Source of the DNA: an uncultured Actinomycetes bacterium
GTDB lineage: Bacteria > Actinomycetota > UBA4738 > HRBIN12
Direction: 5' to 3'
Assembly (NCBI GenBank): GCA_963704725.1
Contig: OY969934.1
Span: 800,001-864,000, forward strand
DNA: 64,000 bases
This document shows, piece after piece, positions 38,350 through 64,000 of this stretch. Each line of letters begins with the position of its first letter. The stretch's first letter is position 1. The notes under the pieces are model-generated. The model saw only the letters and a list, made by a program, of their open reading frames with translations, did not search any database and was not told the DNA's origin. The position numbers and the translations under genes are program-made.

Positions 38350-38820
38350 GTGCCGGCGAAGAAGGCCACGGCGAAGAAGGCCACGGCGAAGAAGGCCACG
38401 GCGAAGAAGGCCACGGCGAAGAAGGCCACGGCGAAGAAGGCCACGGCGAAGAAGGCCACGGCGAAGAAGGCCACGGCGAAGAAGGCCACGGCGAAGAAGG
38501 CCACGGCGAAGAAGGCCACTCCTCGAGGCTCGTCTCGGAGTGCGCCTCAGCGAAGGACGACACCTGCGCGTCGGGCTGCATCGCCGTCCGGGCGCGCAGC
38601 GATGCCGGCCAGTCGCGGGCCCGCGCCGGCAATGGCGGGCGATGTCATCATCATCGACTCTGTTCAGGTCGGGTCCACGGCACGTACGGGTGAAGTCGTG
38701 GAGGTCGTCCATGGTGCGGCAGGCGACAGCTACTGGGTCCGGTGGACGGATGGGCATCAGAGCCTGATCTCACCGAAGGGCGGCACCGCCCGCATCGTCC
38801 GGGCATCGGATAGGGCCTGA
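38350..38820 (+). CDS. Histone H1-like (AKKAT)11 repeat fused to a DUF1918-like domain
   Basis: RBS GGGAGGTG; C-terminus AGDVIII...RTGEVVEV...[15 protein letters not shown] resembles DUF1918. Confidence 0.75.
38356..38520 (+). repeat. Tandem repeat, 11 x 15 bp
   Basis: gcgaagaaggccacg repeated 11 times; only the last base of the last unit differs. Confidence 0.97.
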
Positions 38821-41747: not shown

Positions 41748-41955
41748 AACTCTCTACCGAACCCAGGGCGGTTCAATGCGCCCTCCGGGTGCGGACCACG
41801 ACCGGTACCGATCGAAGCTCCCGAACTTCGGACGACCGCACTTCTGGCACGTCAACGAGTGGGTCCAGGGCACGGTTCAAGAATCGCACAGCCATGGCGG
41901 CGCGCCGATGGGTTGTGGAACGATGGCCTTCGGGGCCAAGGGGGGGACTTCAGGC

Positions 41956-44516: not shown

Positions 44517-44592
44517 TGGTGCCCCCGGCAGGAATCGAACCTGCGACACGCGGTTTAGGAAACCGCTGCTCTATCCACTGAGCTACGAGGGC
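44517..44592 (-). tRNA. tRNA-Arg (anticodon CCT)
   Basis: gccctcgtagctcagtggatagagcagcggtttcctaaaccgcgtgtcgcaggttcgattcctgccgggggcacca: cloverleaf, TTCGA T-loop, encoded CCA. Confidence 0.97.
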
Positions 44593-44598
44593 GGAGCT

Positions 44599-44620
44599 GG
44601 CAAGTAATGCGGCAAGTAAT
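44599..44620. repeat. 10-bp direct repeat abutting the tRNA 5' end
   Basis: ggcaagtaat at 44599-44608 and 44611-44620. Confidence 0.75.
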
Positions 44621-44649
44621 CCCAGCACCCGTCCGACTCGTCAACCGGT

Positions 44650-46242
44650 TCAGAGAGTCTGAGTGGTAGGGACCGGGCTTCCATCGACTCTCGGGGGCTC
44701 TGGAAGGGGCAGTGGGCGGAGTCCACCCAGGCTTGTTGAGCGGATCCGTCCGAGCTGGAAGCTTACGCAGCGAGATCCAAGCTGCTGCCTCGCCCGGACG
44801 CGAGCGAGGGTGATGGCGTTGACGAACGCGCTCGTAGCCGAGGAGGTCAACCATCTGGCCACGCCAGCCCTTGGCGGAAGCCTTCTTCTTCCACAGGGCC
44901 TCCTCGATGGAGTTGTTGATCGACTCCGAATCGGGGCGCAGCGCCCAGAGCCGCTCGAAGTCCTTGGAGCCCTCCGGGATGGCCCGGAGGTTCTCGGTGC
45001 GGTTCAGTCCCCGGCGGCCGTCCTCGCGCGTCGTGTCCAACCTGAGGCAGATCTCGATTCCGCCGTACTCCTCGGGGAGCCGGGAGAAGCCGTACCAGCG
45101 GTGCCGCTTCTTGGTCTTGTGCGGCTGGATGCGCGTGCAGGTGAGGGGCTCATAGTGCGGATCACCGGTGTCGGTCAGCGTCTTGACGCACGCCCACCCG
45201 TCCTTGGCGGCGATGTGGACGATCTCCTTGCTCCCGTCCGGCATCACCACGGTGATGTCGTCGATGTCGGCAGTCTTCGGGACGTACTCGCCCTTCTTGC
45301 GCCCCTTGCCCCGTTTCGGGTTCGCCTTCGCGTGAACCTGGACCACCGGAACCAGGCCGAGCACGGTGAGGATCTCCTGGAGGTGCTCACCCCGCAAGGC
45401 CATGTCCCAGACGACGGACTGCGCCCCCGGAGCGTACCGGCGGATGCGAGCCAGCAAGACGAGCGCCATGGCGGCCTCGTCGTTCTCGACGTGCTCGGCG
45501 CCGAGCATGAACCTGCCCTCGTCACAGCGGACGCTCGCGGTGGCGAAGTTGAGGCCCCAGACCCTATCCCCACCGCCCTCGACGTGCCAGGCGGCGTCGG
45601 GATCGAAGCGCACCTCCCGTCTTTCGCCCGTCTCCGGGTCGACCCTCTTGGTTCCGGGCTTCGCGCCGTAGAGCGCCTCGATCTTCTTCCCGTCGCCGAA
45701 GATCGATCGCGTGATCTCAGGATGGGTGGGGCTCCCGCCTCCTTCGGGGGCTCAAGAAGGCCCGCGGTCCGGGCTTGACGGACGGCGAACTCGGTGTGGA
45801 TCTCGAGCGAGCGCTCGATCGCGGCGTCCGTGGCGAGGTACCTGTCGCGCATATACGCATGCGCCTGTCTGGTCGGGGGCTTCCGGGGCAGCTCGGGGAG
45901 CTCGGGGTGGAGCCGCTTCATTTCGCGCCGGATGTACCTCCACCATCCGCCCTTCCTGAGCTCGCGCACCGCCATCGTGAGGGAGGGGAAGATCGCCCAC
46001 AGCTCCGGCATCAGCGTCCACACGAACTCGGGGTAGATCCGACTCCTGCCGACCGAACCGGCCGGCTTCGGCGGGATCACTTCGGCGGCCGCGAACTTGG
46101 CGTCGTCACGAAGAAGGACATCGATGCGCTCCCGGATTGAGAGTGCCCCGTCCTCGACCGGCAGGACGCGCGACTGGGGCTCGGGGCAAGCCCGCGGGGG
46201 CCGGCGTTGCCAGCGCCTGGCTCGGGAGGATGCCGCCCTCAT
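44650..46242 (-). CDS. DDE transposase-like protein (IS4/IS5/IS1380-type fold), frameshifts at ~45750 and ~44830; 3' end approximate
   Basis: Joined frames give IFGDGK (D1), VVWDMAL (D2), W-x2-R-x3-E-S-I-N (YREK-like E); ATGA overlap with the upstream gene. Confidence 0.65.
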
Positions 46243-47189
46243 CGGCCGTTACCCGCGCGCCAGTCGAACCCGATGAGCTTGACGGTCTCGTCCAGGGATC
46301 GCATGCCGAGCAGGAGGGCGACCTCGTGAAGGGGCGTGCCCTCATCGAGCGCCTTTCGGCCGGCCCACGAAACGATCGAGCGCGGCCTGATGCCGGGGGC
46401 AGTGAGTCCGGCAGCGCGTAGCGTCTCCTTGACGGCCTGGGCGCATGCGGCCCGCAGTGTGCGCGGCGTCGTGCGCCACACGATCAGTGATGCGTCGGGG
46501 TCGCTCACCGACCGGAGGCGCCGTTTCACCTGGATGAGTCCCCAGTCGGTCAGTTGGCCCCAGCGCGCATCGACGGTGGGCGATCCCGGAAGCCACACTC
46601 GCGCGAGCTCCACCTCGACGTCGCGCACGCGGACCCGGCCCATCTCGGAGGTCCGAGCGGTCGCCTCGCTCAGCGCCCAGGTGATCGAGCGGCGATGGTC
46701 GACGGGCGAAGGGACCGCCCGTGATTGCCCTCGCTCATGCTCCTCGTCCGTCAGTGGGCGGGTCAGCAGGACTCCGCGCTCGGGGACCGGGATCCCTAGC
46801 GTGGGATCGTGGTCCATCAGCCCGAGGCGGATCGCCTCCTGACTCATGGTGCGAAACGCGAAGAGCCGCGAGCGCTCGGTCAACTCAGTCGGCCTGCGGC
46901 CCTTAGAGGAGCGGGCCTCCATGCGAGCAAGGACGTGCTCGTTCGTGATGTCAGCCGGATCCGTGATGCCGCAGCCGTTTCGCAGGAACCGCGCGGATCG
47001 CTCCAGGTCATCTGCCCTGAATGCGGCCGTTTCCGACTTGTAGCGACCCGTCTCGAGCAGGCTCGTCAGCACGGCGCTGGCCACTTCTTCGACTGAAAGG
47101 CAGAGGTCGTGACCGCGTGAGGCGGTGGCGCCATCTGCGCCCGATTCCTGACCGTTTCGCCCTCGATCACTCTCGTGTCCGGATCCCAC
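46239..47189 (-). CDS. Tyrosine-recombinase-fold protein lacking HxxR and the catalytic Tyr
   Basis: SAM-like N-domain ending DHDPT; box I ATARTSE...RVRDV; box II IRPRSI...LLGMRSLDETVKLIG. Confidence 0.7.
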   Translation of the reverse strand: MGSGHESDRGRNGQESGADGATASRGHDLCLSVEEVASAVLTSLLETGRYKSETAAFRADDLERSARFLRNGCGITDPADITNEHVLARMEARSSKGRRPTELTERSRLFAFRTMSQEAIRLGLMDHDPTLGIPVPERGVLLTRPLTDEEHERGQSRAVPSPVDHRRSITWALSEATARTSEMGRVRVRDVEVELARVWLPGSPTVDARWGQLTDWGLIQVKRRLRSVSDPDASLIVWRTTPRTLRAACAQAVKETLRAAGLTAPGIRPRSIVSWAGRKALDEGTPLHEVALLLGMRSLDETVKLIGFDWRAGNGR

Positions 47190-47307
47190 CGCGCATGCCT
47201 CCTACTGCTGACGGCGGGTCTGAATCCACGGAAGGCACCACGGGCCGCGAATACACCATCGGTCGAGGAGGTTTCTTCGGCTCCTTGCGGGACGGGCTCT
47301 CGCGCGG

Positions 47308-48252
47308 TCATCGTTCGACTCGCTCGCGCAGGTCACGCGCGTCGCGCCAGTCCCAGCCGATGAACTCGGCCGTTCGGTCAAGGCTCCGGATGCCGAGCAT
47401 CGAGGCGATGCCATTGATTGGGACGCCCCCGGCGAACGCCCGCGCGCCCGCCCAGGCCGCGACCGAGGCCGGACGCACGTCCGGCTCGCGCGCGAGCCCG
47501 GCCCGGCGAAGCGTGGTCGCGATGGCGATAGAGGCCGACGACGTGGCGCTCACGCTGCTCCTGGCCGTGGCGCAGACGAGCGGGGTAGTTGGGTGAACGT
47601 CTCCGAGCGCACGCACTCGGCGCTCGAGTTGGACGGTTCCCCAGTCGGACACCACGCCCCACCTCGGGTCCGTCTTTGAGCTGCCGGCGATCCAGACACG
47701 GGCAGCGCCAAGGTCGAGGTCGCACACACGTACACGCGCGAGCTCGCCGCTCTTGGCTGTTGCCTCGGCGACCGCCCATGCGGCCGCCGCGCGCGTCTCG
47801 ACGAGCGTGTGGATCGAGTAGGAGCGACAGAGCGTCACCTCGTCGTCGGTCAACGGACGCGCGCGAAGCGAGGACCGGGGCGGAAGGACAATGTCCAGGG
47901 TCGGATCATGGTCGACGAGGCCCAGCCGACGGCCCTCGAGGAACTCCAGGCGCACGGCGGAGCGACGGAAGTGCATCGTCCCGACCGCGGGCGGTGTCCC
48001 CTTCTTCGACCTCGCTCTCACGAACCCCTCGGCGACGTCACGCGTCACCTCCGAGGCGAGGCCGATGCCGCACCCGCGCTCGGCATAGCTGGAGAACCTG
48101 CGCATCAGATCGGAGAGGCGATCGACGCTGTCGAGCGACAGCCCCCGTTCGGCCATCGCCGCCACGGCGGCGGCGTGTAGTTCGCGGAGTGTGGTCGGTG
48201 AGTCGGTATCACCTGAGGGAGTGGTCGCCTGGTGAGATCGAGCCGAGGACAC
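47308..48252 (-). CDS. Second, paralogous tyrosine-recombinase-fold protein, also degenerate
   Basis: DHDPT, RPLTDDE, ATAKSGE, VRPASV, MLGIRSLDRTAEFIGWDW; start uncertain. Confidence 0.7.
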   Translation of the reverse strand: MSSARSHQATTPSGDTDSPTTLRELHAAAVAAMAERGLSLDSVDRLSDLMRRFSSYAERGCGIGLASEVTRDVAEGFVRARSKKGTPPAVGTMHFRRSAVRLEFLEGRRLGLVDHDPTLDIVLPPRSSLRARPLTDDEVTLCRSYSIHTLVETRAAAAWAVAEATAKSGELARVRVCDLDLGAARVWIAGSSKTDPRWGVVSDWGTVQLERRVRALGDVHPTTPLVCATARSSVSATSSASIAIATTLRRAGLAREPDVRPASVAAWAGARAFAGGVPINGIASMLGIRSLDRTAEFIGWDWRDARDLRERVER

Positions 48253-48258
48253 GGCGGG

Positions 48259-49068
48259 CTACCCCCTTCGAGGGCGCACGGGCGGCAGGTTGGCCTCGGT
48301 CGGATCGACCACGAGCTCAAGATGAGGATGCGGCTTGCGTCGACGTCCGCTCGGCGGAACAGGTTCTTCGCCCTCAGATCCGAGCCACGTTCCGAGGATC
48401 GCCGTCACGCCGTCGGCCAAATACGAACAGAAGGAGCAGGCGGCCGTTGCCTCTGGAGGCGTGGGGCGATCGAGCAGATCGGCAACGCTGCCCAGGAAGG
48501 CCATGAACTCGCCGTCGCGGCGCGTGACCTCGATCCAGTGCGTCTCGCCCCGGTAGGCGGCTCCTCCGCGGGTCGCCGTCATCCGAGTGGGCTCGAAGCA
48601 TAGGAGACCGAGCCGGGTGACGGGCTTCAGCATCAGGCTCCCGGGAGCAGGCGTCTCTGCTGCAAGCGCATAGGCGTGGAGCTGCCGCCCATACAGAGCT
48701 GCATGGTGCGGTTTGGGGACGGTCGTCTTGTAGTCGACGATCGCGAAGGAGCCGTCGTCGAACCCGATCGCCGAGTCGATTCGACCGACGATGAACAAGC
48801 GGCGGTCGTGCCCGGGGACGTGGATCGGCATCGAGCGAAGCCGCCGGTCGCCGTGGACGATCCGTCCCGGCGGCAGGTCCGGCGAGATCCGCTCGCTCCG
48901 CTTGCCATCGAAGAACGCCTTGGCCTGCAGATCCAGCAGGGTGAAGACCCTCGGGAAAGGCGTCCTCGGGCGCGGGAAGTTCCCCGCCACCTTCAGCCAG
49001 AAGCAGCGAGGGCACTCCTCGAACAGGAACGTGAGGTCGGACGGGCTCAGCTTCCAGGCTGCGCCCAC
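48259..49068 (-). CDS. PD-(D/E)XK nuclease, Cas4/RecB-like
   Basis: LSPS...CPRC, GRID, VDYKT, QLHAY, CSFC. Confidence 0.85.
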   Translation of the reverse strand: MGAAWKLSPSDLTFLFEECPRCFWLKVAGNFPRPRTPFPRVFTLLDLQAKAFFDGKRSERISPDLPPGRIVHGDRRLRSMPIHVPGHDRRLFIVGRIDSAIGFDDGSFAIVDYKTTVPKPHHAALYGRQLHAYALAAETPAPGSLMLKPVTRLGLLCFEPTRMTATRGGAAYRGETHWIEVTRRDGEFMAFLGSVADLLDRPTPPEATAACSFCSYLADGVTAILGTWLGSEGEEPVPPSGRRRKPHPHLELVVDPTEANLPPVRPRRG

Positions 49069-49152
49069 ATGTAGGCTAGACACGTCGGGACCCCCAATCC
49101 GGGCTCCGGCCAAGCCCCGGGGCGTTCCACCGCCGCCGGGGCTCTGCCTTAT

Positions 49153-49200
49153 CCGTTGACAGGCGCAATAATAACCAAAAACAATAGCGTGCGTCAATGG
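49153..49200. promoter_or_regulatory. Overlapping divergent promoters in an AT-rich patch
   Basis: TTGACA 49156 (+) and TTGACG 49197 (-) form an imperfect inverted repeat around aataataaccaaaaacaata. Confidence 0.55.
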
Positions 49201-49718: not shown

Positions 49719-51773
49719 ATGACGTACTTGCAGTGGAACGACGCGTTGGCTCGCCACTTCTTCCACCCTGAGCAGGCGGGGCAGCAAGTGTGGCTGTATG
49801 TCACGGATACTCTTGTTGGCGAGTTGGGTTCCCAGGCCGGCGATGGTGATGTCTCTGGTTTCGTTGCAGCCGTACGCGAGGGTCCTCCATGGTGTGCTGC
49901 CTCGCATCTGTGCAGGCGTGCATTAGAGGCATGGGATGGCTGGCGTGATCGAGGAATCGAGTACCCGCCGTATGTCGGGTACCTGAGCCTGTTCGTGCTT
50001 GCGGCTGGCCTTGAAGGGGACTTCGCAAGACATGCCTACTACCCGCGCCTCCGCGCCCTGCTGCGAGAGGGCGGGGAAGGAGCGCTTCCTTCCTTCTCGC
50101 GGATGCTTGAACTGTGGGACGACTTGGAGCGCTGGTCGGTTCATGATCGCGACGGCAAGCTTGGGCTGTTCGAAGCTCGGATTGTCGGCGGCCACATACA
50201 CGTAGGCCTCCCAATCGCGCAGACCATCCTCTCTGAAGACGAACGCCGAGCTCTCCCGCGGATGTTCGCGGTCGCGGGCCTGGATCCAACATCGCCCCCT
50301 CCAGATGACGAGCTGGCGCGGATGCTGAGAGCTCAGGGCGGAACGGTCCTTCGTCCCCGAACCCGCAAACTCGTCCGCACGAGGCGAGACGCCGAGAGCT
50401 TCGCCGTGCTGGTGGACACGGTGGCGGAGGAGCTCGCTGAGTGGGACGGAACCTACGAGGATGATGATCTTGCGGATGCAGGCACCCCGGTCCGTGGCCG
50501 CAGCTACGGCAGCATTCGCCTCTGTGTTGAGGTCGACAGGACAGCTGAGCGGGTGTCCTCGTCACTTCGCTGCCGCCTCAGGCGGGAGTTCCCAGCCGGG
50601 ACCCTTCATCTGAACGGCCAGGGTCTGCCGCTGCTGGCCTGTTCGGAGAGCGGGCTTCCCGGATGGTCGTCACCCCTGGTGAACGCGGCAACGCAGGAGT
50701 TCTTTGATGCGTCTGCAGTGGATTGGGTCAATGGAGTCTGGCTCGCGGAAGAACGACTCGGGTGGCGCTTTGCACTCCCAGCGCGTCAGGTCCGAGTCCT
50801 TGTGGCGGGGCGCGGAGAGGGGTTGCCTGGCCTTGTCGAGGTGCGGCAGGTCCCCCGTGGGCAACCCGTCTACTTCCTATACCGCCGCGAGGACTGGGAA
50901 GCACTCGCAGGCTGGGCAGAGGCGGAGTGCACCAGGTTCGAGCAGCTACCCGTTCGGGATGGGATCCCTCCAGGATGGCGGCTTGCAGCATGCCTTGAAG
51001 TCAGGGGCGATCGTCAGGTGCGTTCGGCCTTCCCCGAGTTGGCTCTCTCAGAGCGGGCGCGACTGGCCCTCGTAGGAGGTGTTAGGAGCGGTCCGGGACT
51101 GAGCTTCTTCCCGTTCGCTCCGCCCAGCCTCTTGCTTGAGGGAGGCGATGGCCGGGAGTCGGTGCTCTGCAACGGGCAGACGCTGGCCGCAGGTGACGTC
51201 GCCCGGTCGTTTGAGATCCCTTATGGACTGCCGGTGGAGACCAGAATCACGCTTGAAGTGAAGCGCGGAGGAGAGCCGCTCAAGAGCCGGTCCATCTACC
51301 TGAGGGGCCAGTCTGAATGGCGCCTCACGACACCCCAGCAAGTGGTCGACCGGCTCGGTCATCCAGCAGAAGACCCCAAGACCGGAGTGGCCGGAGCGCT
51401 GCCGATCGGTCTCCCCTCGACGGAAGGGTTCAGCCCTTCGCTGATGTTGACCCCTGGCGTGAAGCCGGGTGCGGCCAGGGTGTTGTTCATCGGCCGCGTT
51501 CCAGGGGAGATCTACTCATGGCCGAGCGAGTCCGGCCCGCCCGGGTGGTCGCCAGTCTGGGCAGTGCCGATGGGCCGGCGCGGCCAAGCCGTCTACTGCG
51601 GAACAAGCGTGGAGACGGACATTCCGGCCCCGGACGAACGCAAGGGCGATTGCGACCGCGTGAAGTTCTGGAGGCTCGTGATGTGGCATCGGCGGAAACG
51701 GATCAGAGAGCCCGAAGAGCCCGAGCTCGCGGTTCTCTGGCGCTCGTATGTCGAGGCCGCTCGCCATGTATGA
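49719..51773 (+). CDS. Druantia-associated protein (DruC-like by size and position)
   Basis: 684 aa with no housekeeping motif; first of coupled genes ahead of a giant DUF1998 helicase; assignment inferred. Confidence 0.55.
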   Translation: MTYLQWNDALARHFFHPEQAGQQVWLYVTDTLVGELGSQAGDGDVSGFVAAVREGPPWCAASHLCRRALEAWDGWRDRGIEYPPYVGYLSLFVLAAGLEGDFARHAYYPRLRALLREGGEGALPSFSRMLELWDDLERWSVHDRDGKLGLFEARIVGGHIHVGLPIAQTILSEDERRALPRMFAVAGLDPTSPPPDDELARMLRAQGGTVLRPRTRKLVRTRRDAESFAVLVDTVAEELAEWDGTYEDDDLADAGTPVRGRSYGSIRLCVEVDRTAERVSSSLRCRLRREFPAGTLHLNGQGLPLLACSESGLPGWSSPLVNAATQEFFDASAVDWVNGVWLAEERLGWRFALPARQVRVLVAGRGEGLPGLVEVRQVPRGQPVYFLYRREDWEALAGWAEAECTRFEQLPVRDGIPPGWRLAACLEVRGDRQVRSAFPELALSERARLALVGGVRSGPGLSFFPFAPPSLLLEGGDGRESVLCNGQTLAAGDVARSFEIPYGLPVETRITLEVKRGGEPLKSRSIYLRGQSEWRLTTPQQVVDRLGHPAEDPKTGVAGALPIGLPSTEGFSPSLMLTPGVKPGAARVLFIGRVPGEIYSWPSESGPPGWSPVWAVPMGRRGQAVYCGTSVETDIPAPDERKGDCDRVKFWRLVMWHRRKRIREPEEPELAVLWRSYVEAARHV

Positions 51774-52767
51774 GTTCGGCGATGCTCTCTTGTTCACTCT
51801 GTCGGCTTGGCGGCACTGCACTTGGCGGCAATTCCGGCGCGCCTTTGACGATCTTCACGCTCGGTTCCTTGCGACCGGAGGTGCGGTCGCCACAGACGAT
51901 GACGCCTATGTTCGATCGAATACCGCTCGCCTGTTGGACTCTCTCGGACATTGCGACTCCCTCTTCGATCCTGGCGGAGGCGGGAGCGTGCTCGTGGCGC
52001 CCAGCGTGCTCGCACGGCTACCCGTGGCGGGGCTGCCTCGCGCAGTCCTCTGCGGCTCACGATCGCCTGAGACCCTTGAAGCGTTCCAGCGTGCCAAGGA
52101 GCGCGCTGGCGGCTCGGTGCAGGTGCGTGATGGATCGCAGGGATCGCTGAACGCCTTCGCACCGACTCGGATCGAGGTTCAAGCGGTGTCTGATGCGGCA
52201 ATGGGCAAGCTCTCGGCTGATGTGGGCGTGATCTACGTCTCAGAGCCCCCCGCGTGGTCTCTTGCGCAGTTCAGCGGATCGCTGGAGAGCTTCCTTGGAT
52301 TGCTGAGATGGCGGACCCGTCCAGATCTGACCTGGGCACGCGCTGACTTCGATCCTGCTGGGCTGCGGTTCGCCGGCGAACGAGACTCCGAGGCGCTCAT
52401 CCTCAGCCGCTACCAGGATCCTGTCAGCGGCCGCTGGAGCTTCTGGTTGCGGCGAGGGGACGAGTGCGCAGAAATCGACGACCCGTCCTGGGGTCGCTAC
52501 GCGGTCTTGGCTGAGCACCGGCGCAGGGTGCTTCAGTTTGACGCAGCAACGGGAGAGCTCGCCGTCCCGGCGAGCTCTCCTCTTCCGCGGCTGATCGCCA
52601 GAGCCGCCACCCTCGCCTCTGGATATGCTCCGAGAACGGTTGTTAGCGTGGATGGCGAGTCGGGGCTGCGACGCAGACTCCTCGTGTACGGGAGGGTGCC
52701 AGTCGACGTTTGGGAAAGGCTCGCGATGAGGGTGGGGCAACTCTCAGTTGGAGGCGGGGATCGATGA
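51766..52767 (+). CDS. Druantia-associated protein (DruD-like by size and position)
   Basis: ~333 aa, overlaps both neighbours, directly precedes the helicase; assignment inferred. Confidence 0.55.
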   Translation: MYEFGDALLFTLSAWRHCTWRQFRRAFDDLHARFLATGGAVATDDDAYVRSNTARLLDSLGHCDSLFDPGGGGSVLVAPSVLARLPVAGLPRAVLCGSRSPETLEAFQRAKERAGGSVQVRDGSQGSLNAFAPTRIEVQAVSDAAMGKLSADVGVIYVSEPPAWSLAQFSGSLESFLGLLRWRTRPDLTWARADFDPAGLRFAGERDSEALILSRYQDPVSGRWSFWLRRGDECAEIDDPSWGRYAVLAEHRRRVLQFDAATGELAVPASSPLPRLIARAATLASGYAPRTVVSVDGESGLRRRLLVYGRVPVDVWERLAMRVGQLSVGGGDR

Positions 52768-55700
52768 CGGAATCCATGAGCGATCCCTCGGGTGCCTTCG
52801 CGAAGGTACGCGAGAGCCTGATTCTGTACATCAAGACCGCCTTCGGAACCCAGTTCCCCAGTTTCGAGCAGGAACGGGAGGACCTGCTGAGGCGGTCCGC
52901 CGTCCTCTGCCAGGAGCCGTGGATCGAACCGCTGCCCCGATACCAGGGCTCAGGGAAACGGATCGCCGACCTGACCACGGCAGACGTGCCCGGGCTCGCA
53001 GGAGAGGCGGTCGAGGACTTCAAGACCATGTCCGCATGCGGGCTCGTCGGTTCGTACGAGCTTCGACGCCATCAGCTCGAGATGCTTGGCCGGGCCCTCT
53101 CAAGCGAGCACTGCGTTGTCACCGCGGGTACCGGGTCCGGCAAGACGGAGGCGTTCCTGCTGCCGCTGTTCGCGTATCTAGCGGACGAGTCACGAAGCTG
53201 GGCACAACCGGGCGCTACCTCTGCCCACCACGGCGACTGGTGGGCGAACGGGGATTGGCGGGAGCAGTGCCTGCGGCGGACCGCCAAGCAGACAAGGATG
53301 ATCCGGTCCCTGCGCGTGCCTCAGCGGCAGCATGAGAGTCGCCCGGCGGCGGTCCGCGCGCTCATCGTCTACCCGATGAATGCCCTTGTAGAGGACCAGC
53401 TAAGCCGGCTGAGGAAGGCACTTGACTCCCCGGAAGCACACGACTGGTTTGCCGAGCATCGAAGCGGAAACCGCGTGTACTTCGGACGGTACAACGGGGC
53501 ATCTCCAGTGCCTGGGCATGAGTACAACCCGTTGAACAAGCAGGGGAAGCAGAGCCCGAACCGAAAGAAGGTCGAAGAACTCGCGACCGCGTTGGAGCAG
53601 GCGGATAGGGCCGCCGCCGCGGCAGCAAATCATGCGCAGCAAAGCGGGGATCCGGATGTTCGGTACTTCTTCCCGCGGCTAGATGGCGCTGAGATGCGAT
53701 CGAGATGGGACATGCAGGATGCTCCACCGGACATCCTCATAACGAACTTCAGCATGCTCGGCATCATGCTCATGCGCGATGCCGACAGGCGCATCTTCGA
53801 CGCGACTCGTGACTGGCTGCTCGAGGATGGGAGCATCTTCCATCTCATCGTCGACGAGCTCCACCTCTATCGGGGAACTGCAGGCACTGAGGTTGCCTAC
53901 CTCATGCGGCTACTCCTCGAGCGACTTGGGCTGGAACCAGGACACCCGAAACTGAGGGTTCTCGCCTCAAGCGCTTCGCTGGAACCTGATGATCCGGACA
54001 GCGCGAAGTACCTATCTGACTTCTTTGGGACAGAGTGGGCGAGCGAGCAGATTATTCCAGGCTACCCAGCACCCGCCCCGGCACTGGCGGCATCCTCCGC
54101 CCTGCCTGCAGACGCCTTGGCGAATATGGGGCATGCGCTTGAGGTCGACAGTGATGAGCTCGCTGCTGTGGGCGCCGACGTTGCTGCCGAGCTTGATGGT
54201 GGCGCTGGGGCAAGTTGGGAAGATGCTCTCGCCCAAGCGCTGGAGGGTGAGGAGCTCCAACTCGGCTCACGGATGCTGCAGGCGTGCGAGGTGGACGGTG
54301 TGACTCGGGCCGTACCCCTGACCACATTCGGGCGACGGCTCTTCGGAAGTGGGGTCAGCGATGAGCGGAGCGCCGACGCGGTGCGGGGGCTCCTATTCGC
54401 CCGCACCCTCTGCGATCCGGTCAAAAGCAACCTGCCGACGTTCAGGCTGCACTGGTTCTTCCGCAACTTCGAAGGGTTATGGGGATGCACAGCACCCAGG
54501 TGCCCGGCCGCCTCCGCAGCTGCGGATGATGGGCGCACGTCGGGGCAGCTGTATTCGGATTCGAGGATCCTGTGCCAGAACCCGACCGAGCGCCACCGCG
54601 TCCTTGAGCTTCTCTACTGCGAGCAGTGTGGCACCACCTTCTTCGGTGGCAGCCGAATGGAAATCTCTGACAACGGCGGATGGGAACTGCTGACGGCGGA
54701 CCCAGACATCGAGGGGATTCCCGATCGCCAGGCTGCGCGGTTCGTGGAGCGACGCACGTACGGCGATTTCGCACTGTTCTGGCCCCAGGGGGATGCTGAC
54801 CTGAGCCAGAACGCGATGGCTTGGCACCAGCCGACACTCGACGGCACTCCTTCCTCCAGCGCTCGGTGGGTTCCGTCGGCGCTGGATACTCGGAGCGGGC
54901 GGCTCGTGCTCGGCAAGGGAGGTCAGCCGTATCCGCAGGGCCCGTGGGTCTCTGGTTACAAGTATCTCCTCGACCAGGCGACTGACCCCCAGAGTGTGAG
55001 TGCGCTGCCCGCCGTCTGTCCGAGATGTGCGGGGGACTACACGCGGCGAAAGTTCCGGCGGTCCCCAGTGCGGGGTTTCAGGACTGGTTTCTCGAAGGTC
55101 ACCCAACTCCTCTCGAAGGAGCTGTTCCACTTCCTCCCAGAGGAGTCTCGGAAGGTCGTTGTGTTCTCCGACAGCCGTGAGGAAGCGGCCGGTCTGTCAA
55201 ACGGAATCGAGCGATCGCACTATCTCGATTTGGTTCGAGAGGCAATGTACGACGAGCTCCACCAGCTAGCGGTCGATGAACCACGATTGCTGAAGGAGCT
55301 TCAGCATGGTTCATCAGGGCTATCTAAGACAGCTGTGCAGTTCGCGGCCCTAAACCCAGGCATCAGGGAACATTTCGAGCGCCAGATCCTCGCCGCTTCT
55401 GCGCCCATACCCGACGTGAACGATCCGGGCCAGCGAGCTGTGTTGGAAGCCTATAGATCGGGCGCCCAAGCAGAACTGGATGCGGTGGTGGATCGGGGTG
55501 CCACGCGCACGGTGGCGCTCCGCCTACTCTTCGAGGCCAAGGACAGTTCTGACGCGTGGACCGGGCCGGGGGCACTCATACAACGGCTTAAGACACTGGG
55601 TGTGAACCCGGGAGGGAACGACGTCCTGTACCAGGACTACAGTTACGAAGGCCACTACAACCGATGGACCAAGCTCTTCGACTTCTCCAATCCGATGGGT

Positions 55701-58596
55701 GGGTGGCTGCCCGGGCTGACCGGCGAGGCTGTGGATGCCCGCGAGAAGTTACGGGACAAGGTCGCTTCGGAAGTCTGCAGCGTGTTGTTCAGCCGCCTGT
55801 ACTTTGGTTTCGAGTCGGCGGGTCTGGGGTTCGCCCGTCTTGATCTCCCGTGGGAGTCGATCGAGCAGCGCGCGGCGGAGTGCGGGAGCAGACGCGGGTC
55901 TCTTCGGCAGGATCTGCGACGCCACGGTGCGAGTAATGGGGGAGCTCTATCGGTACCACCAGGAGCCCGCGGAGTATCCGCTGGACAGCTGGCCCGACTG
56001 GAACTCGGCTCGCGCGAAGCTCCGCAATTTCGTCAAGGCCGTCGCGGCCGCGAACTCACTCAACGAAGCTGATTTGCTGCGGTCGGTCCGCGAGGCGATA
56101 TGCGCAGACGGCGGGCACCATGATTTCATCCTCGACCCGCGTCACCTGCTCGTCAGGATCGCCCTTCCGGAGAATCCCGCATGGGTTTGCGGCGAGTGCC
56201 GTCGGGCGCACCTGCATACTGCAGGCGTCTGTACCAACTGCCTGGAGCGGCTGGATGATGCGCCGTCAACAGCGTGCTCGGAGCTACATGGCCACAATTA
56301 CTACGCGAAGGAGGCAGTTGAAGGGCGGCAGCCTTTGAGGCTGCACTGCGAGGAACTGACGGCACAGACGGACGATCAGCCTGAGCGGCAGCGCCTCTTC
56401 CGGGACATCACGGTTGACCTCCGTGAGGATCCGAGGCATCCAGTCGTTGACGGAGTTGATGAGATCGACGTACTAAGCGTCACCACCACGATGGAGGTGG
56501 GCGTCGACATCGGAAGCCTGCAAGCAGTGGTCCTCGGCAACATGCCGCCTATGCGCTTCAACTATCAGCAAAGGTCCGGCCGGGCAGGCCGTAGAGGTCA
56601 GCCGTTCGCGATTGTGCAGACCCTCTGCCGTGGGCGCAGCCACGACGACTTCTACTTCAGGAATCCTGAGCGAATCACGGGCGACCGACCACCCGTGCCC
56701 TTCCTCTCCATGGCGCGCCCAGAGATCGTACAGCGCCTTGCGTCCAAGGAGGCGCTGCGGCGGGCGTTCCTCGCAGCAGGAGTTGGGTGGGACGAGAGCC
56801 CTGTACCTCCTGACAGCCACGGAGAGTTTGGCCTCGCTGCTACGTGGAACAGCGATGAGGGTCGGCGCGCTGCGGTCAATGGGTGGCTTGCTTCTTCGCC
56901 CGATGTGAACGGCGTCATTGGAGCGCTCACTTCTGGAATCAAGGAAGGGGTGGACCTGGCCAGGCTCGAAGCCTTCATTCGGAACGAACTGTTCCAGCGA
57001 GTGTGCGATGCGGCGGTGAACCCTGAGCTCACCGGTGATGGGTTGGCGGAGCGCCTGGCGGAGGCTGCCATCCTCCCCATGTATGGCATGCCATCTCGCA
57101 GCAGGCTCCTCTACCACCAGCTTCGCGGCGCGAAGCCGAGCACCATTGATCGGGATCTCGACTTAGCCGTGACGGAGTTCGCTCCTGGGTCGCAGCGCAC
57201 AAAGGACAAACGCATCCATCAGGCGATCGGCTTCACGGCGCCGCTCATGTACAGGAGCGGAAGATGGGAGCCCCGACTGAGCCTGACCCGCTTCCGGGAC
57301 GGCGATGGATGCTCCGCTGCGAGCGGTGTCACTACACGGGGACTGCGGACCACGAGCCGGCCGATGTCTTCTGCCCGGAGTGCGGATGTGCCAAGGACGA
57401 ACCGGTACCGTTTCGCGTCTACGAGTTCGCGGTTCCCCTTGCGTTCCGGACAAGTCTCGGCCCGGGAGGCGATGCAAAGGATGTGGATGAGTTTCTGGCT
57501 GTTGGTGCGGCCGCTGTGGCGGAGTCTGACCAAGAGCCCTGCAAGCAGGTTCCGGGCACTAACAGCGCTCTCGCGTTCTCCGCAGCCGGCCGCGTGTACC
57601 GAGTGAATGATCGGCGAGGCCTGCTCTTCAATGGGAAGCTTGGCGAAACGCTACGCCGCAACCAGCGCCTCAAGACTCAGTGGATCGATGAACGTTTCAG
57701 TGATGCGGATGGAATCACGTTTACGACGACCACCTCGGCCCAGTCCGTAGCTATCGCGGCTCCAAAGACGACGGACGTGCTCCGCATCCGTCCAGACGCT
57801 AACCCTCCGGGTCTATCGCTTGACCCCCTCGCGATCGATCCCGTTATCTCCCGCGGTGGGGTGATGGCCCGAGTCAGGGCGGGGGTGAAGGCTGCCTACT
57901 ACTCGGCTGCGTTCATTCTGCGGTCGGTCGCTGCTGAGGCTCTTGATACGGATCCCGAGGAGTTCGATGTCAGCAACGTCAGGCAGGTGGAGCTCGATGG
58001 GAGATGTGCGAGCTGGGGAGATCGTGCTGAGCGACCACCTCGCCAATGGCGCTGGGTTTGTCAGATGGGTCAGCGATCACTGGGGCGAGATTCTCTCAAG
58101 CATCGTGCGGCTGGACGCCCCCGCGAAGACTTTCATCGGCGACATGACGTCCGAGAAGCACCGAGTTGAGTGCGACTCGGCCGGCTACGACTGCCTCCGC
58201 CAGTATCGCAACATGAGCTACCACGGGCTGCTGGACTGGCGGCTCGGACTCTCCCTCCTCCGTTGCCTGCACTCCGTCGAGTTCGCGGCTGGGGCCGATG
58301 GGCAGTTTGCGACTCCCGACCTCGACGGGTGGCTGGACCTGGCCAGACAGCGACGAGACTCCTTTTGTTCGACGTTCGACTGCTTGCCAGCGGACTTCGG
58401 GCCCCTGCCAGGCTTTGAAGTCGGCGCCAAGCAGGTGATCGTCGTGCATCCGTTGTGGAACACGTATCAGCCTTCCGGCCTCCTGGCGGAGGCTCGGGCT
58501 CAGACTGGATCCGCAGGGGCGGATGCGATCCGTTACGTGGACACTTTCAACCTTATGCGGCGGGAAAGCTGGACCTACCAGCGTCTCGGGGAATGA
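52764..58596 (+). CDS. druE: Large DEAD/DEAH helicase with DUF1998 (DruE-like, ~1940 aa), frameshifts at ~55885, ~57270, ~58000
   Basis: [58 protein letters not shown], several CxxC, C-terminal D...NGAGF...YDCL..YRN..H..LDWR. Confidence 0.8.
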
Positions 58597-59789
58597 CCCG
58601 CTCAATACAACCCGGGCTTCTTACGTTCCGGCCTCTGCTGGCTCCGCTTAAGAGCATCTCGCCGACGAGTTACGTGGGGCTTCGCCAATGCGCGCTGCGC
58701 GGGGTGTGGGCTTCGGCTAGAACCTCAGAGCTCCTTCCCTCCGTTCCGGCCGCTCGAGTGGGAAGTGTCATCCACCGCCTCCTTGAAGCGGCTGGAAGCG
58801 GGACCTTCCTCCGGGGGGACGCTTCGGCAGTGGACCGTTCTTGGCAGGAGCTTATTGCTGCTGTTGAGGAGCGGATGCGCTCTAGCTGGTTGGAGGAGCA
58901 TCTGGTGCCGCTCAGCCATTCGGTGCCGGACTTCGAAGTGAGGCGGATCCAGGCCCGGAGCAGAGCGCTCGATCTTGCCGACGCGGTGGCCCGCACTTCG
59001 GACCGACGGGCTACCAGCGGCGGCGGCTCGCTAGCGCTACAAGGATGTGAGGTGGCAGTCTCCACTTCGGATGGCCGCGTGCGGGGACGCATCGACGCGA
59101 TCGTCATCGATAGCGGGGGGCCCGTTGTTCGCGACTACAAGTCGGGTGTCATCTTCGACATCGGAGCCGGGAAGGGGCACGTCCTCAAGGAGGCTTACCG
59201 GATCCAGCTCCGTATGTACGCGGCTCTATACGCGGAGACCGCCGGGAGGTGGCCGGTTCGGCTTGAGGTTGTCCCGATCCGCGGAACCCCGGAGGGCGTC
59301 GCATTCGATCCCGATTCCTGTAATGCGCTTGTTGAAGCTGCAAGTGCGCTACTGGAGACCGTGAACGAAGCCATTCGCCAGGAATCCACCGCGGGACACA
59401 TTCAAGAGATGTTGGCCCGGCCGCAACCGGAGACCTGCGCGCACTGCCCGTTTCGGCCCGGATGCCGGCCATATCGAACCGCGCGAGCTGCAGGCGGCGA
59501 GGGATGGCCGCATGACGTGTGGGGACGGCTAACAAGCATCGTGACCCTTGGTCGGGGCGGGGCGATGATAGAGGTGGACTCCGGCGACGGCGTAATCCGA
59601 ATCCGGGGTCTGGGTCAGGCCGGGCGGCATCCTGCCCTGAGGATCCTGGAGCGGGGAGACGCGGTTGCCGTCTTCAACGCACGCCCCACAGGGTCGCAAG
59701 CGATGTTCGCCGAGTCCTCACATACGGTGATCTACAAGCTTGAACAGCCTTCCGCATCGACCCAGGTAGAGGGGTGGAGCGGGCCCTAG
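58593..59789 (+). CDS. PD-(D/E)XK nuclease with Fe-S staple cysteines (Cas4/AddB-like)
   Basis: ISPTS...QC, GSVIH, GRID, DYKSG, QLRMYA, CAHCPFRPGC; ATGA overlap with the helicase. Confidence 0.85.
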   Translation: MTRSIQPGLLTFRPLLAPLKSISPTSYVGLRQCALRGVWASARTSELLPSVPAARVGSVIHRLLEAAGSGTFLRGDASAVDRSWQELIAAVEERMRSSWLEEHLVPLSHSVPDFEVRRIQARSRALDLADAVARTSDRRATSGGGSLALQGCEVAVSTSDGRVRGRIDAIVIDSGGPVVRDYKSGVIFDIGAGKGHVLKEAYRIQLRMYAALYAETAGRWPVRLEVVPIRGTPEGVAFDPDSCNALVEAASALLETVNEAIRQESTAGHIQEMLARPQPETCAHCPFRPGCRPYRTARAAGGEGWPHDVWGRLTSIVTLGRGGAMIEVDSGDGVIRIRGLGQAGRHPALRILERGDAVAVFNARPTGSQAMFAESSHTVIYKLEQPSASTQVEGWSGP

Positions 59790-60001
59790 GCCACCGAGGC
59801 TTGAGCCAGTTGGGCGGACCTCTACACTACTGTCGATGCGAACCTCAAGTGGTGGAGGCGAGATCCGGAGCACAAGGACTGCCCACTGCTTCCATCGCCG
59901 CCCCACGCAACGCAGCGACAGGTCGCCGCTTGGGAAGGGAGCAGGATCCATCGGGACGGAGCGGTAGGCAGACCTCGAGACGTCCGGGGACGCAGCAGCA
60001 C

Positions 60002-61729
60002 ATGGCCGGTGCGCTCGAAAGGATCGATGAGCTGCTTGAGGTGACTTATCGCTCAGCGGATCTGGGGAACGTTGAGACCCGCTCTCCGAAACCGTGTACA
60101 TCCTCCTCGCCAAACAGACGCGAGAGACCGTGTACCGCCCGATGTTCAAGCGCCTACACGAGCGGTTCCCCCGGTGGATTGACATCTTGGAGGCATCCCC
60201 GTCTGAGGTCGAGGACGTCCTCCGTTCGGGCGGCTTCCAAAGGCAACGCACCGCGCAACTGAGGGCGCTCCTCAAGGCCATCCTGCAAGAGAACCTAACG
60301 CGTGATACGGGACCGGCGAAGGGGGAGGATCTCACACTCGGGTACCTGCGTGAGTTAGGAGACGCCGAAGTGGAGCGGTCTCTTCTTCGGCTCCCTGGAA
60401 TAGGCCCCAAGTCAGCGCGGTGCGTGATGTCCTACGCCCTTGGCAGGCACCGGTTTGCCGTGGACACTCACGTTCACCGGATCTTCCAGCGTCTCGGGTT
60501 GCGTCCGTCCAAGGGCCGGAAGAACGATCATGATCCATTCGAGGCGATCGTCCCTGAGAAGATGCGCAAGCGTCTGCACGTGAATCTGGTCCATCACGGG
60601 CGCGCCGATCTGCCGTACAACGAAACCACGTTGCGGTGATTGTGTCCTCGTGTCGTTCTGCCATGAAGGCGTTGCTCGACTTCGCAAGGGACAGGACACG
60701 AGGCCACGCGCTGTCGATCTGTTTGCGGGAGCCGGGGGCATGGGGCTGGGATTCCGGCAAGCTGGCTACCGTATCGTGGCAGCCGTTGAGCAGGATCGCC
60801 ACGCTGCCCAGACTTATCGAGCGAACAATCCAGGAGTGCCGGTGATTGAAGCAGATGTGACGAGACTCAGCGGTAGGGATCTCAGCAAGTACGTGCCGGG
60901 GCGAGGCGGTCTGGAGGTTCTCCTTGCCGGGCCACCTTGCCAGGGATACTCAGCCGCGGGAGCGCGTCAGCCGGAGGACCCACGCAATCAGATGTTCCGC
61001 CATGTCAGTAGGCTCGCGAGCGAACTCAGGGCGAGGGTCGTAATCTTCGAGAACGTCCCCGGTCTGCGGCGGGTCAATGGCACGGGGTTCCTGCCCAGCA
61101 TCCTTAGTTCCCTGCGAGCCCGGCGGTACCGTGCCAGAGCGCATCTGGTGACGGCGTCGGACTTCGGCGTGCCGCAGAACAGGAGGCGCTACTTCATACT
61201 TGCGCGGCAGGCCGATGCTGGCGGTCCTCTCCCGCCACCGCCAGCAACACACCGTCTTCCAGGCGGCATGGGATCTGAAGGCCTACCTGTAACGCCCACC
61301 GTGCTTGAGACTCTCCGTAGTCTTCCCGCATTCGGACCCGGCGAGCAGGCCGAGTGGCGAACGCTCCCGGACGGATCCGAGCTCCTGAACGCGTCGACCA
61401 TGGATCATTCGGATGCGGTGATAGCGAAGATCAGGAGGATCAAACCGGGCGGCGGTCCGATCTCGTACCGCCGGCTTGAAGGCGATCTAGCGCGAACTCT
61501 GGTCGCGGGGCACCGTGCCTTGCCGGTCCATCCGACGGTCGATAGGACAATGTCCGTCCGCGAGGCCGCCCGGCTCCAGGGGTTCCCCGACAACTACGTG
61601 TTCTGCGGGCCGAGAGCGGATCAACCGCTGCAGGTCGCCAACGCCGTGCCGCCTCCAGTCGCGCGAGCGCTAGGTCAGCACCTTCTCCCTCATGTGGCGG
61701 CTCGGAAGGCTCTCGCTTCGCGATCGTGA
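60002..61729 (+). CDS. HhH-GPD/EndoIII glycosylase - DNA cytosine-5 methyltransferase fusion (frameshifts ~60077, ~60607)
   Basis: LPGIGPKSA, VDTHV; CRTTKPRCGDCVLVSFC runs in frame into DLFAGAGG, PPCQ, ENV, QNRRR, REAARLQGFP, NAVPP. Confidence 0.8.
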
Positions 61730-62042: not shown

Positions 62043-63299
62043 TGCCCCAGAGTTTGGTTGACTCCTGAGCTGGGAGGATGACCCTCCCGGGAAGGAGACT
62101 CCACATGCCCCAGGTGTACCCCCTGGAGTTCCGCTGGGACGTCGTCGCCGTGGCCAGGCGCAGAGAAGCCCCGCTCACCCAGATCGCCAAGGACTTCGGC
62201 GTCTCCCCGACGTGTCTGCACCGCTGGTTGAAGCGGGCAGAGATCGAAGACGGCGTCCGTGACGGCCTGCATGCTCGCCGAGGAGGCCGAGATCCGTGGG
62301 CTTCCGCAAGCGCAACCGGCTGCTCGAGCAGGAGAACGAGGTCCTTCGCCGGGCCGCCATCTACCTGGGCCAGGGTGTCCTCCCAAAATGATGTACCCGC
62401 TGGTCCGCGAGCTGGCCGTCGACGGCATCCCCGTCACGGTGACCTGCCGGGTGCTCGGGTTCTCCACCCAGGCCTAGCTACAAGTGGCGCTCGAACCCGG
62501 TCTCGGATCGGGGACTGGTCCGACGCCCACCTCGTCGACGCCGCCCTGCGGACGTCCACGCCGACGACCCCGCCTTCGGCTACCGGTTCATCGCCGACGA
62601 GCTGGCCGCGGAGCACGGGATCACCGCGAGCGAGAACCGGGTGCACCGTCTGTGCAGCGCACACGGCATCTTCTCCGCGCTCGCCCACAAGGCCGGCCGG
62701 CGCCCCAGGCCCGGAGAAGCGGTGGCGGACGACCTGGTCCGCCGGGTCTTCGCCGCCGACGTTCCCAACGCCCTCTGGTACACCGACATCACGGAGCACC
62801 GCACGGACGAGGGCAAGCTCTACCTGTGCTGCGCTGAAGGACGCCTGCTCGGGTCGCATCGTGGGCTACTCGATGGACCTCGAGGATGAAGGCCTCCCTC
62901 GCGGTGGCGGCCGTCCGCAACGCCATCGAGCTTCGCCGGGCCCGTGCTTATACTGTGCTGCACTCCGACAGGGGCAGCCAATTCCGCTCCAAGAAGTTCG
63001 TCCGGCTGCTCCGCAACCACGGCCTCCTCGGGTCGATGGGCCGCACCGGCACCTGCGCCGACAACGCCGCCATGGAGTCGTTCTTCGCCCTGCTGCAGCA
63101 CAACGGGCTGGACCGGGGGCGCTGGCAGACCAGGGAGGAGCTCCGCCTGGCGATCGTCACCTGGATCGAACGCACCACCACCGCCGGCGCCGTCAGCGGG
63201 CCCTCGGTAAGCTCACCCCGATCGAGTTCGAGGCCGTGCACGAGGTCGCTTAAGCGGCCTGAAAGCCGTCAACCCCGCGAGTCAACCAAACCTGGGGCA
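62043..63299 (+). mobile_element. IS3-family element with multiply frameshifted transposase
   Basis: IRs tgccccag..tttggttgactc / gagtcaaccaaa..ctggggca; 3-bp target duplication GAC; WYTDITEH, HSDRGSQF, DNAAMESFF. Confidence 0.9.
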
Positions 63300-63375
63300 G
63301 ACCCACCCGAGGTTGACCGGATGTCGGCGGACTCCAACCAGGAGGGGGAAGTGGGAAGTGATGGGCACGGTGAGG

Positions 63376-64000
63376 CTACCCAGCGCATAGCAGATCGGCA
63401 GTCGCATGAACTAGGTCGGCGATCAAGGCCATGGCTGTGTCGCATTGCTTGACCACATTCGCGGGTGCCCGATGGTTGCGTTGGACGCTCGGGGAGGACG
63501 GGTTGGCGTAGTCCAGCTGATGCGCGATGTCGTTGCGGGCCTTGAAGAAGCCGTCGAGCGCGGAGAACCGCCTAGACGGGAGCCTTAGGTTCGTGATGCC
63601 GAGCACATCCCTTACCCGTTCCTTGAGGTCACTGCTGCCCTGGAAGCTCGCTTTGGTCATGGCGCCCATATAGCGCTCGATGAGCTGGGACCTCGGATCT
63701 GCGGCGGCGATCGCATCGAGCAGTCCATCGGGTGGCTTTGGCTCGTAGAGTTGGCTCTTCAGGTACTCGCGGAATCGGACTTCTGCGGTACCTCCGCGAT
63801 GCAACAGTACTGGTAGGGCGTCGCGGATCAGCTGTTGACAGCACGCGTCGATTCCACTGGACGTGAAGACCAGGGCGGCACGAAGCAGGTTCACCTGATC
63901 CCGGCTCAACCGGCCCTTTGTACTGCCCTTCGCTTGGCTGGCAACCTCTCGGATGCGCGAGAAGCTGTCGAGCAGGCCGGTGACGCTCTCGTGGGTGGCC
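63376..64000 (-). CDS. HEPN-domain protein (RiboL-PSP-HEPN-like), 5' end beyond the window
   Basis: LLRAALVFTSSGID, SFQ, RNDIAH (Rx4H); frame open to the window edge. Confidence 0.75.
   Translation of the reverse strand, partial: ATHESVTGLLDSFSRIREVASQAKGSTKGRLSRDQVNLLRAALVFTSSGIDACCQQLIRDALPVLLHRGGTAEVRFREYLKSQLYEPKPPDGLLDAIAAADPRSQLIERYMGAMTKASFQGSSDLKERVRDVLGITNLRLPSRRFSALDGFFKARNDIAHQLDYANPSSPSVQRNHRAPANVVKQCDTAMALIADLVHATADLLCAG

Follow-up and report, generated by a model that had tools for sequence, protein, structure and literature searches.

Druantia type II is said to comprise DruM, DruF, DruG and DruE, reportedly as set out in 2018 by Doron and colleagues. Payne et al. 2021 (PMC8565338), in the portion of that text available to us, speak of a 'requisite DruM and DruG' for type II and define Druantia type IV, from 168 instances in 11 phyla, as DruE, DruF and DruL, with DruL in the place of DruG and 'lacking DruM'. 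Type IV appears as one of four DruE clades in the accessible part of a 2026 preprint (10.64898/2026.05.13.724313); according to the accessible part of another (10.64898/2026.05.12.722862), methyltransferase modules belong to types I and II, and the host is not methylated by type III. Here, we analysed a stretch of 64,000 nucleotides from the genome of an uncultured Actinomycetes bacterium (hereafter the window, to which all coordinates refer unless stated otherwise; loci of relatives are labelled L### and homologous proteins P####). The list of open reading frames (ORFs) and their translations revealed five co-oriented genes at 49719-61729 on the plus strand, which in all likelihood constitute an anti-phage Druantia operon that came in by horizontal transfer and has druF-druL-druE, the core of type IV, to which the nuclease gene druK and a DruM-like C5 cytosine methylase fused to a glycosylase are added.

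The assignment of the core is based on the PADLOC profiles. DruF matched DruF4 (7e-168) with residues 1-684 on positions 1-678 of the 678-position profile, ahead of DruF2 (1.5e-151), the bit scores being 558 and 504, respectively, and the protein that follows it matched DruL4 (1.4e-55, residues 12-331 on positions 3-317 of 330). The helicase is read in four frame pieces, which match DruE2/DruE4 at positions 1-1009, 1016-1481, 1484-1717 and 1722-1924, in this order. The first piece alone reached 2e-288 and 3.5e-286 against DruE2 and DruE4 (958.6 and 951.2 bits), compared with 350 bits against DruE1 and a weak 148 bits against DruE3. Based on these matches, the core is DruF-DruL-DruE and not DruC-DruD-DruE: a DruE of the type II/IV clade is adjoined by DruF, and DruL replaces DruG. 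At E<=0.01, no operon ORF matched a DruA, DruB, DruC, DruD or DruG profile, and the 10 upstream ORFs were likewise free of DruA-DruD matches. Hence DruM-like methylase, DruF and DruE of type II are present without a DruG match, and the DruA-D set that accompanies DruE in type I is not found. The one departure from the published type IV wording, 'lacks DruM', is the C5 methylase that lies 3' of DruK, and we file the locus as holding the type IV core rather than as a strict fit to that wording.

The first four genes are linked by overlapping stops and starts, and the fifth is co-oriented with them (Table 1). The druF stop (51771-51773) falls within the start region of druL, and ATGA overlaps join druL to druE at 52764-52767 and druE to druK at 58593-58596. 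Pfam recognised DEAD (3.2e-14), Helicase_C (6.1e-07), HhH-GPD (4.4e-12) and DNA_methylase (3.9e-58). A preliminary description of this DNA, made by eye from the letters and translations, had already given five genes, the first four with such overlaps, a Druantia operon around a DruE helicase and no DruA or DruB upstream, and on these points our ORF, Pfam and PADLOC results agree with it.

The gene directly behind the helicase is predicted to encode a Cas4/AddB-type Fe-S nuclease of the PD-(D/E)XK fold. DruK matched the PADLOC profiles DruK (2.6e-27) and Cas4 (2.8e-05) as well as Pfam PDDEXK_1 (1.1e-19 to 1.5e-19). We aligned the window protein with 28 homologues encoded directly downstream of DruE in related loci, and C33, H61, E153, D168, D181, K183, Q205, Y209, C282, C285 and C291 were invariant throughout the 29 sequences, all of them being present in the window protein. 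The nuclease motifs are thus intact, i.e. D168, D181-x-K183, QxxxY and one N-terminal cysteine together with a C-terminal CxxCx5C cluster, and from these four cysteines Fe-S binding is predicted. Because the invariant columns correspond to the Cas4/AddB Fe-S PD-(D/E)XK pattern, the earlier call of such a nuclease after the helicase proved right.

The helicase and its two upstream partners differ in how much can be said of them. An intact 1943-residue homologue of DruE, P0001, aligned by tblastn to the window as four consecutive pieces in alternating frames at 77-87% identity, so that the frame shifts by one base at three points, near 55890, 57273 and 58000, with no in-frame stop; the Walker A motif GSGKT and the DELH motif are visible in the translations. 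DruF matched no Pfam family at E<=0.01. Its AlphaFold model (pLDDT 86) is helical over residues 1-241 and then beta-rich, with predicted beta-sandwich domains, of which only residues 446-532 found an Ig/FN3-like match (Z 8.2, rmsd 2.7, 83 residues aligned); a Foldseek search of the PDB at E<=0.001 returned just two matches, to the S-layer protein SbsC, at a TM-score of only 0.11. In the DruL model (pLDDT 92.9) the N-terminal ~120 residues appear winged-helix-like, with MukF (Z 6.7, rmsd 2.9, 78 aligned) and MarR-type proteins (Z 5-6) as the nearest folds, and Foldseek gave no PDB match at E<=0.001. Neither model shows a catalytic fold. A McrB/CnuB-like fold, mentioned for Druantia I/II partners in the accessible part of PMC12458937, did not turn up in the structure searches with DruF and DruL, which is no evidence of its absence. 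DruL also matches the C-terminal third of PADLOC 'DruF2' profiles of ~1011-1030 positions, and in two cyanobacterial loci DruF and DruL form one protein of ~1005 residues (L012:6940-9960 and L061:6946-9960). By the Rosetta-stone argument, this fusion and the layout of the 'DruF2' profiles suggest that DruF and DruL act as one unit.

The fifth gene combines a glycosylase domain with a C5 methylase, as the preliminary description had stated. The methylase match (PF00145, 3.9e-58) is full length, covering positions 3-321 of 324, and the motifs FxGxG, PCQ, ENV and QxRxR are found, seen in the translation as DLFAGAGG, PPCQGYS, ENVPG and QNRRR; the glycosylase frame is joined to it only across a frameshift. 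Aligned with the fusion of locus L040, the window copy changes from frame +1 to +3 near 60076 and back to +1 near 60600; of the three resulting pieces, the two long ones show 66-67% identity and the 41-residue N-terminal one 59%. In seven relatives (L008, L010, L040, L056, L072, L080 and L086) the fusion is a single ORF of 587-645 codons, stop to stop, whose HhH-GPD domain includes a Cx6Cx2Cx5C loop. The aligned window pieces contain LPGIGPKSA, VDTHVHR and CRTTKPRCGDCVLVSFC, so that the HhH motif, the catalytic aspartate and the Fe-S loop are all recognisable, and the HhH lysine and the VDTH aspartate, i.e. the lysine and aspartate of bifunctional glycosylases, are retained. To judge from these residues, the domain is an EndoIII-like HhH-GPD glycosylase; indeed, the closest solved structure to the L040 domain is Endonuclease III (8a5f, 1.2e-25, full length), with the Mig-type structure 1kea at 9.2e-07.

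Two loci, L021:15839-17587 (-) and L024:16847-18721 (-), carry the fusion in the reverse order, methylase first. This points to more than one origin of the fusion, and its occurrence in both domain orders argues for a tight functional link between glycosylase and methylase. Pairs of a C5 methylase and a T:G mismatch repair enzyme are known in Dcm-Vsr and M.MthTI-Mig, where, as here, there is a physical link between the C5 methylase and an enzyme suitable for the repair of 5-methylcytosine deamination damage. In contrast to those pairs, the repair module of the present locus is of the EndoIII-like HhH-GPD type and shares one polypeptide with the methylase.

The operon was acquired horizontally. 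Its GC content of 62-65% contrasts with 71.3% for the genome, 53867-62545 counts as non-coding under a codon model that was trained on the long ORFs of the genome, remnants of IS3 type flank the locus, and a DruE orthologue was not found in 40 relatives searched with the window query, 13 of them of the same genus, many of these genomes being incomplete; one family member among the 40 gave an unrelated, weak helicase match. Upstream, two inverted copies of an IS3-family transposase gene (39834-40475 and 41134-41775) form 642-nt arms that are 92% complementary, and downstream of the methylase a degraded IS3-like gene (62078-63452) has kept a helix-turn-helix and, of the rve domain that follows in another frame, no more than the second half. 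No direct repeats were detected at the bounds of the island in a repeat search of 36-64 kb, and the IS3 copies at ~40-42 kb showed no DNA similarity to the remnant at ~62-63 kb. Scans for promoters and terminators performed at chance level.

Several other features were observed in the same part of the window. Directly upstream of druF lies a divergent operon of five ORFs (44555-49197, minus strand), one of which (48259-49197, minus strand) encodes a Cas4-like PD-(D/E)XK nuclease (PDDEXK_1 1.6e-10, PADLOC Cas4 2.8e-06); the other four proteins, of ~315-350 residues, matched nothing in Pfam or PADLOC, and near 45718 the frame appears to switch on the same strand. This operon may be a second, uncatalogued defence module of the same island. 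A tRNA-Arg(CCT) gene at 44517-44592 on the minus strand, within the low-GC stretch of 38-64 kb, overlaps the 3' end of the ORF at 44555-45613 and could be the integration site of the island; no direct repeat was detected around it. Further upstream, a perfect 15-nt tandem repeat at 38324-38549 (~11 copies of 76 nt that overlap at a spacing of 15 nt) encodes, within the ORF 38350-38820 on the plus strand, a pentapeptide repeat rich in alanine and lysine; this ORF matches the histone H1-like family HC2 (7.6e-11) and DUF1918 (1.9e-12).

Table 1. Positions of the operon genes, their frame pieces and domains, and the split native genes used for comparison (window coordinates, except for the last three rows)
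Feature	Position	Strand	Remarks
druF	49719..51773	+	684 aa; PADLOC DruF4
druL	51748..52767	+	339 aa, or 333 aa from ATG at 51766; overlaps druF stop and druE start
druE	52764..58596	+	~1943-aa SF2 (DEAD/Helicase_C) helicase, four frame pieces
druE, frame pieces	52764-55889, 55891-57273, 57273-58001, 58000-58593	+	
druK	58593..59789	+	398 aa; predicted Cas4/AddB-type Fe-S PD-(D/E)XK nuclease; ATG overlaps druE stop
HhH-GPD glycosylase/C5 cytosine methyltransferase fusion (DruM-like)	59774..61729	+	start uncertain: GTG 59774 or ATG 60002
Fusion, glycosylase part	~59954-60640	+	
Fusion, methylase part	60650-61729	+	
Fusion, frame pieces	59954-60076, 60076-60603, 60599-61729	+	breaks near 60076 and 60600
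hypF, split native gene	G000:C1:278958-281274		locus L091
ECF sigma factor/DUF6596, split native gene	G000:C1:367458-368646		locus L092
relA/spoT, split native gene	G000:C1:2131850-2133179		locus L088

Are the frame breaks of the operon real? Five were found, three in druE and two in the glycosylase-methylase gene, all of them indels of +/-1 base without any nonsense codon; a C4 run, a GG pair and a GC-rich stretch each contain one of them, and the other two lie elsewhere. Because native genes of the genome are also frameshifted and a sister contig breaks druE at other sites, we lean towards indel errors of the assembly, in which case the system would be intact and probably active. Genome-wide, 40 strong same-strand frame-switch candidates were found, and of a random draw of six, five were searched with Pfam. 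In two the switch interrupts a single Pfam domain, namely in hypF (HypF_C_2, profile positions 1-96 and then 98-241) and in an ECF sigma factor gene (DUF6596, 1-21 and then 24-100), and in a third it separates the AH-RIS domain of a RelA/SpoT protein from the ACT domain; the fourth is plausible, and the fifth gave no match. These three splits point to residual indel errors throughout the genome. A second contig of 27.5 kb (proteins P0008 and P0122) carries the same DruE at 99.4-99.6% identity, with breaks near 54899, 55065-55090 and 55571, where the window is intact, and the underlying data are therefore indel-prone.

The alternative, which we hold to be a real possibility if a somewhat less probable one, is a decayed relic, i.e. 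that true single-base indels inactivated druE and the glycosylase-methylase gene after acquisition and left no defence. The five breaks fall in the ~7.6 kb that these two genes make up, and the frame switch at ~45718 in the neighbouring foreign operon and the broken IS3-like transposase gene downstream would fit the same process; the foreign stretch of 44-63 kb holds at least 7 breaks, and such clustering in foreign genes is what a decaying island would show. Between 1 and 36 kb of the window the native genes have no flagged switch, and rpoB and rpoC are intact, which speaks against assembly error. The same is true of the rates: at most 123 native frame-switch candidates in 3.45 Mb stand against the five breaks in ~7.6 kb, although the two rates come from different methods and are not strictly comparable, and the codon-usage hidden Markov model scores native genes only, since it classes the Druantia locus as non-coding. 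A joint loss of the helicase and the self-marking methylase would also be a plausible route to a harmless remnant. However, decay would have had to proceed by +/-1-base indels only, with no nonsense codons or larger deletions, to spare every catalytic motif and to leave the ~4.3 kb of DruF, DruL and DruK unbroken, and it explains neither the breaks of the same assembly in hypF, the ECF sigma factor gene and relA/spoT nor the different breaks in the sister contig.

Is the combination of nuclease and methylase with the type IV core a peculiarity of this genome? To answer this question, we scanned one genome per species with a degenerate pattern, which yielded 582 relatives of the window DruE, and kept the best 80 loci, which were searched by tblastn with the window proteins; since the queries were single sequences, the counts are minimum values. 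In 66 of the 71 loci with at least 3.2 kb upstream, both DruF and DruL are encoded ahead of DruE, and DruK begins within 400 nt after DruE in 35/72 loci with at least 1.3 kb downstream. Flanks of at least 6 kb upstream and 4 kb downstream are available for 47 loci, and 36 of these have a C5 methylase nearby; nuclease and methylase occur together in 23 of these 47, the methylase without the nuclease in 13 and neither in 11, and the nuclease was never found without the methylase. A glycosylase match adjoins the methylase in 14/80 loci. From these counts (35/72 for DruK, 36/47 for the methylase, and a methylase in 23/23 DruK-bearing loci), nuclease and methylase are conserved companions of this DruE clade, and the make-up is common rather than unique. 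The preliminary description had named the absence of such conservation as telling against its proposal; both genes turned out to be conserved neighbours of the helicase clade. As the C5 methylase is found in 36/47 well-flanked relatives, 'lacks DruM' misdescribes the clade.

We also placed the window DruE in a FastTree phylogeny of the N-terminal ~1040 residues (74 rows; 7 loci were left out, their best high-scoring segment being short or containing stops). It groups with L027 and L086 (SH-like support 95), nested in a clade of 11 rows (support 100) from Actinomycetota, Chloroflexota, Thermomicrobiota and Myxococcota, all with a methylase, and the loci of Cyanobacteria and Bdellovibrionota are mostly bare DruF-DruL-DruE. 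A Fisher p of 2e-4 for nuclease versus methylase ignores relatedness and is not used as evidence here.

This survey bears on a further explanation, that the glycosylase-methylase gene is no part of Druantia but shares a defence island with it, as a solitary methylase or the remnant of a restriction-modification module, and brings a mismatch-repair domain of its own. We regard this as unlikely. In its favour is the placement of the methylase relative to the core, which varies among the 55 loci with a methylase match (28 downstream on the same strand, 16 upstream on the same strand, 10 downstream on the opposite strand and one upstream on the opposite strand), so that the methylase could be an independent module; moreover, 11 of the 47 well-flanked loci have none. 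Generic type II methylase profiles give the window copy its highest scores, MTase_II (4.5e-78) ranking above any DruM2 profile (best 4.4e-67), and the glycosylase piece of this copy weakly matches (1.8e-05) a PADLOC 'type II nicking endonuclease' profile that the glycosylase part of L024 matches at 8.8e-29. Against this stand the C5 methylases in the flanks of 36/47 well-flanked relatives from many phyla, including every one of the 23 DruK-bearing loci, and locus L040, where helicase, nuclease and glycosylase/methylase follow in the same order with abutting genes. The window genome (3.45 Mb) has a single PF00145 match, so that an adjacency of methylase and operon by chance is unlikely. In addition, the methylases of nine of ten sampled relatives best match the PADLOC DruM2 profile PDLC00030 (253-506 bits), which the tenth ranks second; by its profile scores, the window methylase belongs to another C5 subfamily.

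The last alternative, a type I-like DruC-DruD-DruE core without DruA/B in an undescribed subtype, as the preliminary description had proposed, draws on the resemblance in gene sizes and order and on DruA/B not being found upstream, and is practically untenable, as the 684- and 339-residue proteins match DruF4 and DruL4 over their full length with no DruC or DruD match at E<=0.01, the helicase scores ~950 bits against DruE2/DruE4 but 350 against DruE1, the core corresponds in full to a published subtype (the very outcome which that description had named as telling against novelty), and even the nuclease has PADLOC DruK models.

Reading the locus as an extended type IV operon also meets difficulties, which we count against it. 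The type IV definition in the available text of PMC8565338 says that there is no DruM, and both the locus and most of the surveyed relatives contradict it. Pfam DUF1998, the zinc-binding domain expected behind the helicase core in DruE and YprA-MrfA helicases, was not detected in the window DruE pieces (E<=0.01) or in P0001 (E<=0.05); P0001 has a weak Zn-ribbon match at residues 1513-1542, and the PADLOC DruE profiles span the DUF1998 region. DruF and DruL gave no informative structural match, the winged-helix (Z<=6.7) and Ig/FN3-like (Z<=8.2) similarities lying within a common range. On the DruE tree the nuclease changes state 8 times and the methylase 4 times, and an independent-pairs test was powerless (6 pairs, median p 1), so that the rule of no nuclease without methylase may reflect shared ancestry. 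Finally, we found no experiment on type IV or type II Druantia in the papers searched.

How does the operon compare with the described types? With type IV (PADLOC; PMC8565338, available text) it shares three core proteins that match the profiles over their full length, in the same order and with overlapping stops and starts, and a wide and patchy phylogenetic spread. It differs in the C5 methylase, present here and in 36/47 well-flanked relatives, in two frameshifted genes, and in DruK, a PADLOC-DB profile that the available text of PMC8565338 does not mention. Type II has a C5 methylase, DruF and DruE in common with it, and the DruE2 and DruF2 profiles score near, or above, those of type IV; the present operon, however, has DruL where DruG would be, an EndoIII-like glycosylase domain on its methylase and DruK after DruE. 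Type III (DruH-DruE), as far as the accessible parts of the two 2026 preprints (10.64898/2026.05.13.724313, 10.64898/2026.05.12.722862) describe it, likewise sets a large DruE helicase beside a separately encoded nuclease-type partner on DNA, whereas our locus is without DruH, matches DruE3 only weakly, has a methylase as companion and encodes a nuclease that is predicted to be of the Cas4/AddB Fe-S type. The operon is an added member of type IV, a catalogued kind: PADLOC already has a profile for each of its parts, and dozens of genomes show this layout. In none of the papers searched does the text describe nuclease and methylase together with DruF-DruL-DruE.

We propose that the methylase would mark host DNA at its own target motif, and that DruF-DruL, fused in some genomes and with a winged-helix-like DruL N-terminus, could serve as a single adaptor or sensor which directs DruE to unmarked or structurally aberrant invading DNA. 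DruE would unwind the targeted DNA, and DruK, translationally coupled to it, would degrade the exposed strand. The fused glycosylase would most likely repair T:G or oxidised-pyrimidine damage arising from 5-methylcytosine and so limit the mutational cost of methylation, in a Vsr-like manner. The idea of a helicase that feeds a nuclease is borrowed from the exonuclease-plus-helicase logic of type III DruH-DruE, as given in the accessible part of preprint 10.64898/2026.05.13.724313, and since experiments on types II and IV were not found in the papers searched, the proposed mechanism is drawn entirely by analogy. A bolder scheme, to which we give little credence, would make the whole DruF-DruL-DruE branch (types II and IV) one methylation-gated helicase-nuclease restriction system, in which DruK is the executing enzyme and is not tolerated unless self is marked by a DruM-type C5 methylase (found in 23/23 DruK-bearing loci); in the subclade of the window, the EndoIII-like domain would then be a base-flipping reader or a nicking module that opens unmethylated foreign DNA as an entry point for DruE, rather than a mere repair add-on.

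In summary, the window copy, being either misassembled or in decay, contributes little by itself, and it is the clade around it that extends the published definition of type IV. A C5 methylase accompanies most loci of this clade, and a nuclease predicted to be of the Cas4-type Fe-S family follows DruE in about half of them, always together with the methylase. One subclade fuses the methylase to an EndoIII-like glycosylase, and both domain orders occur. The published wording of type IV as having no DruM thus misfits the clade. The survey yields a testable model, in which the methylase would mark self, the helicase would unwind and DruK would cut, and it pinpoints intact relatives.

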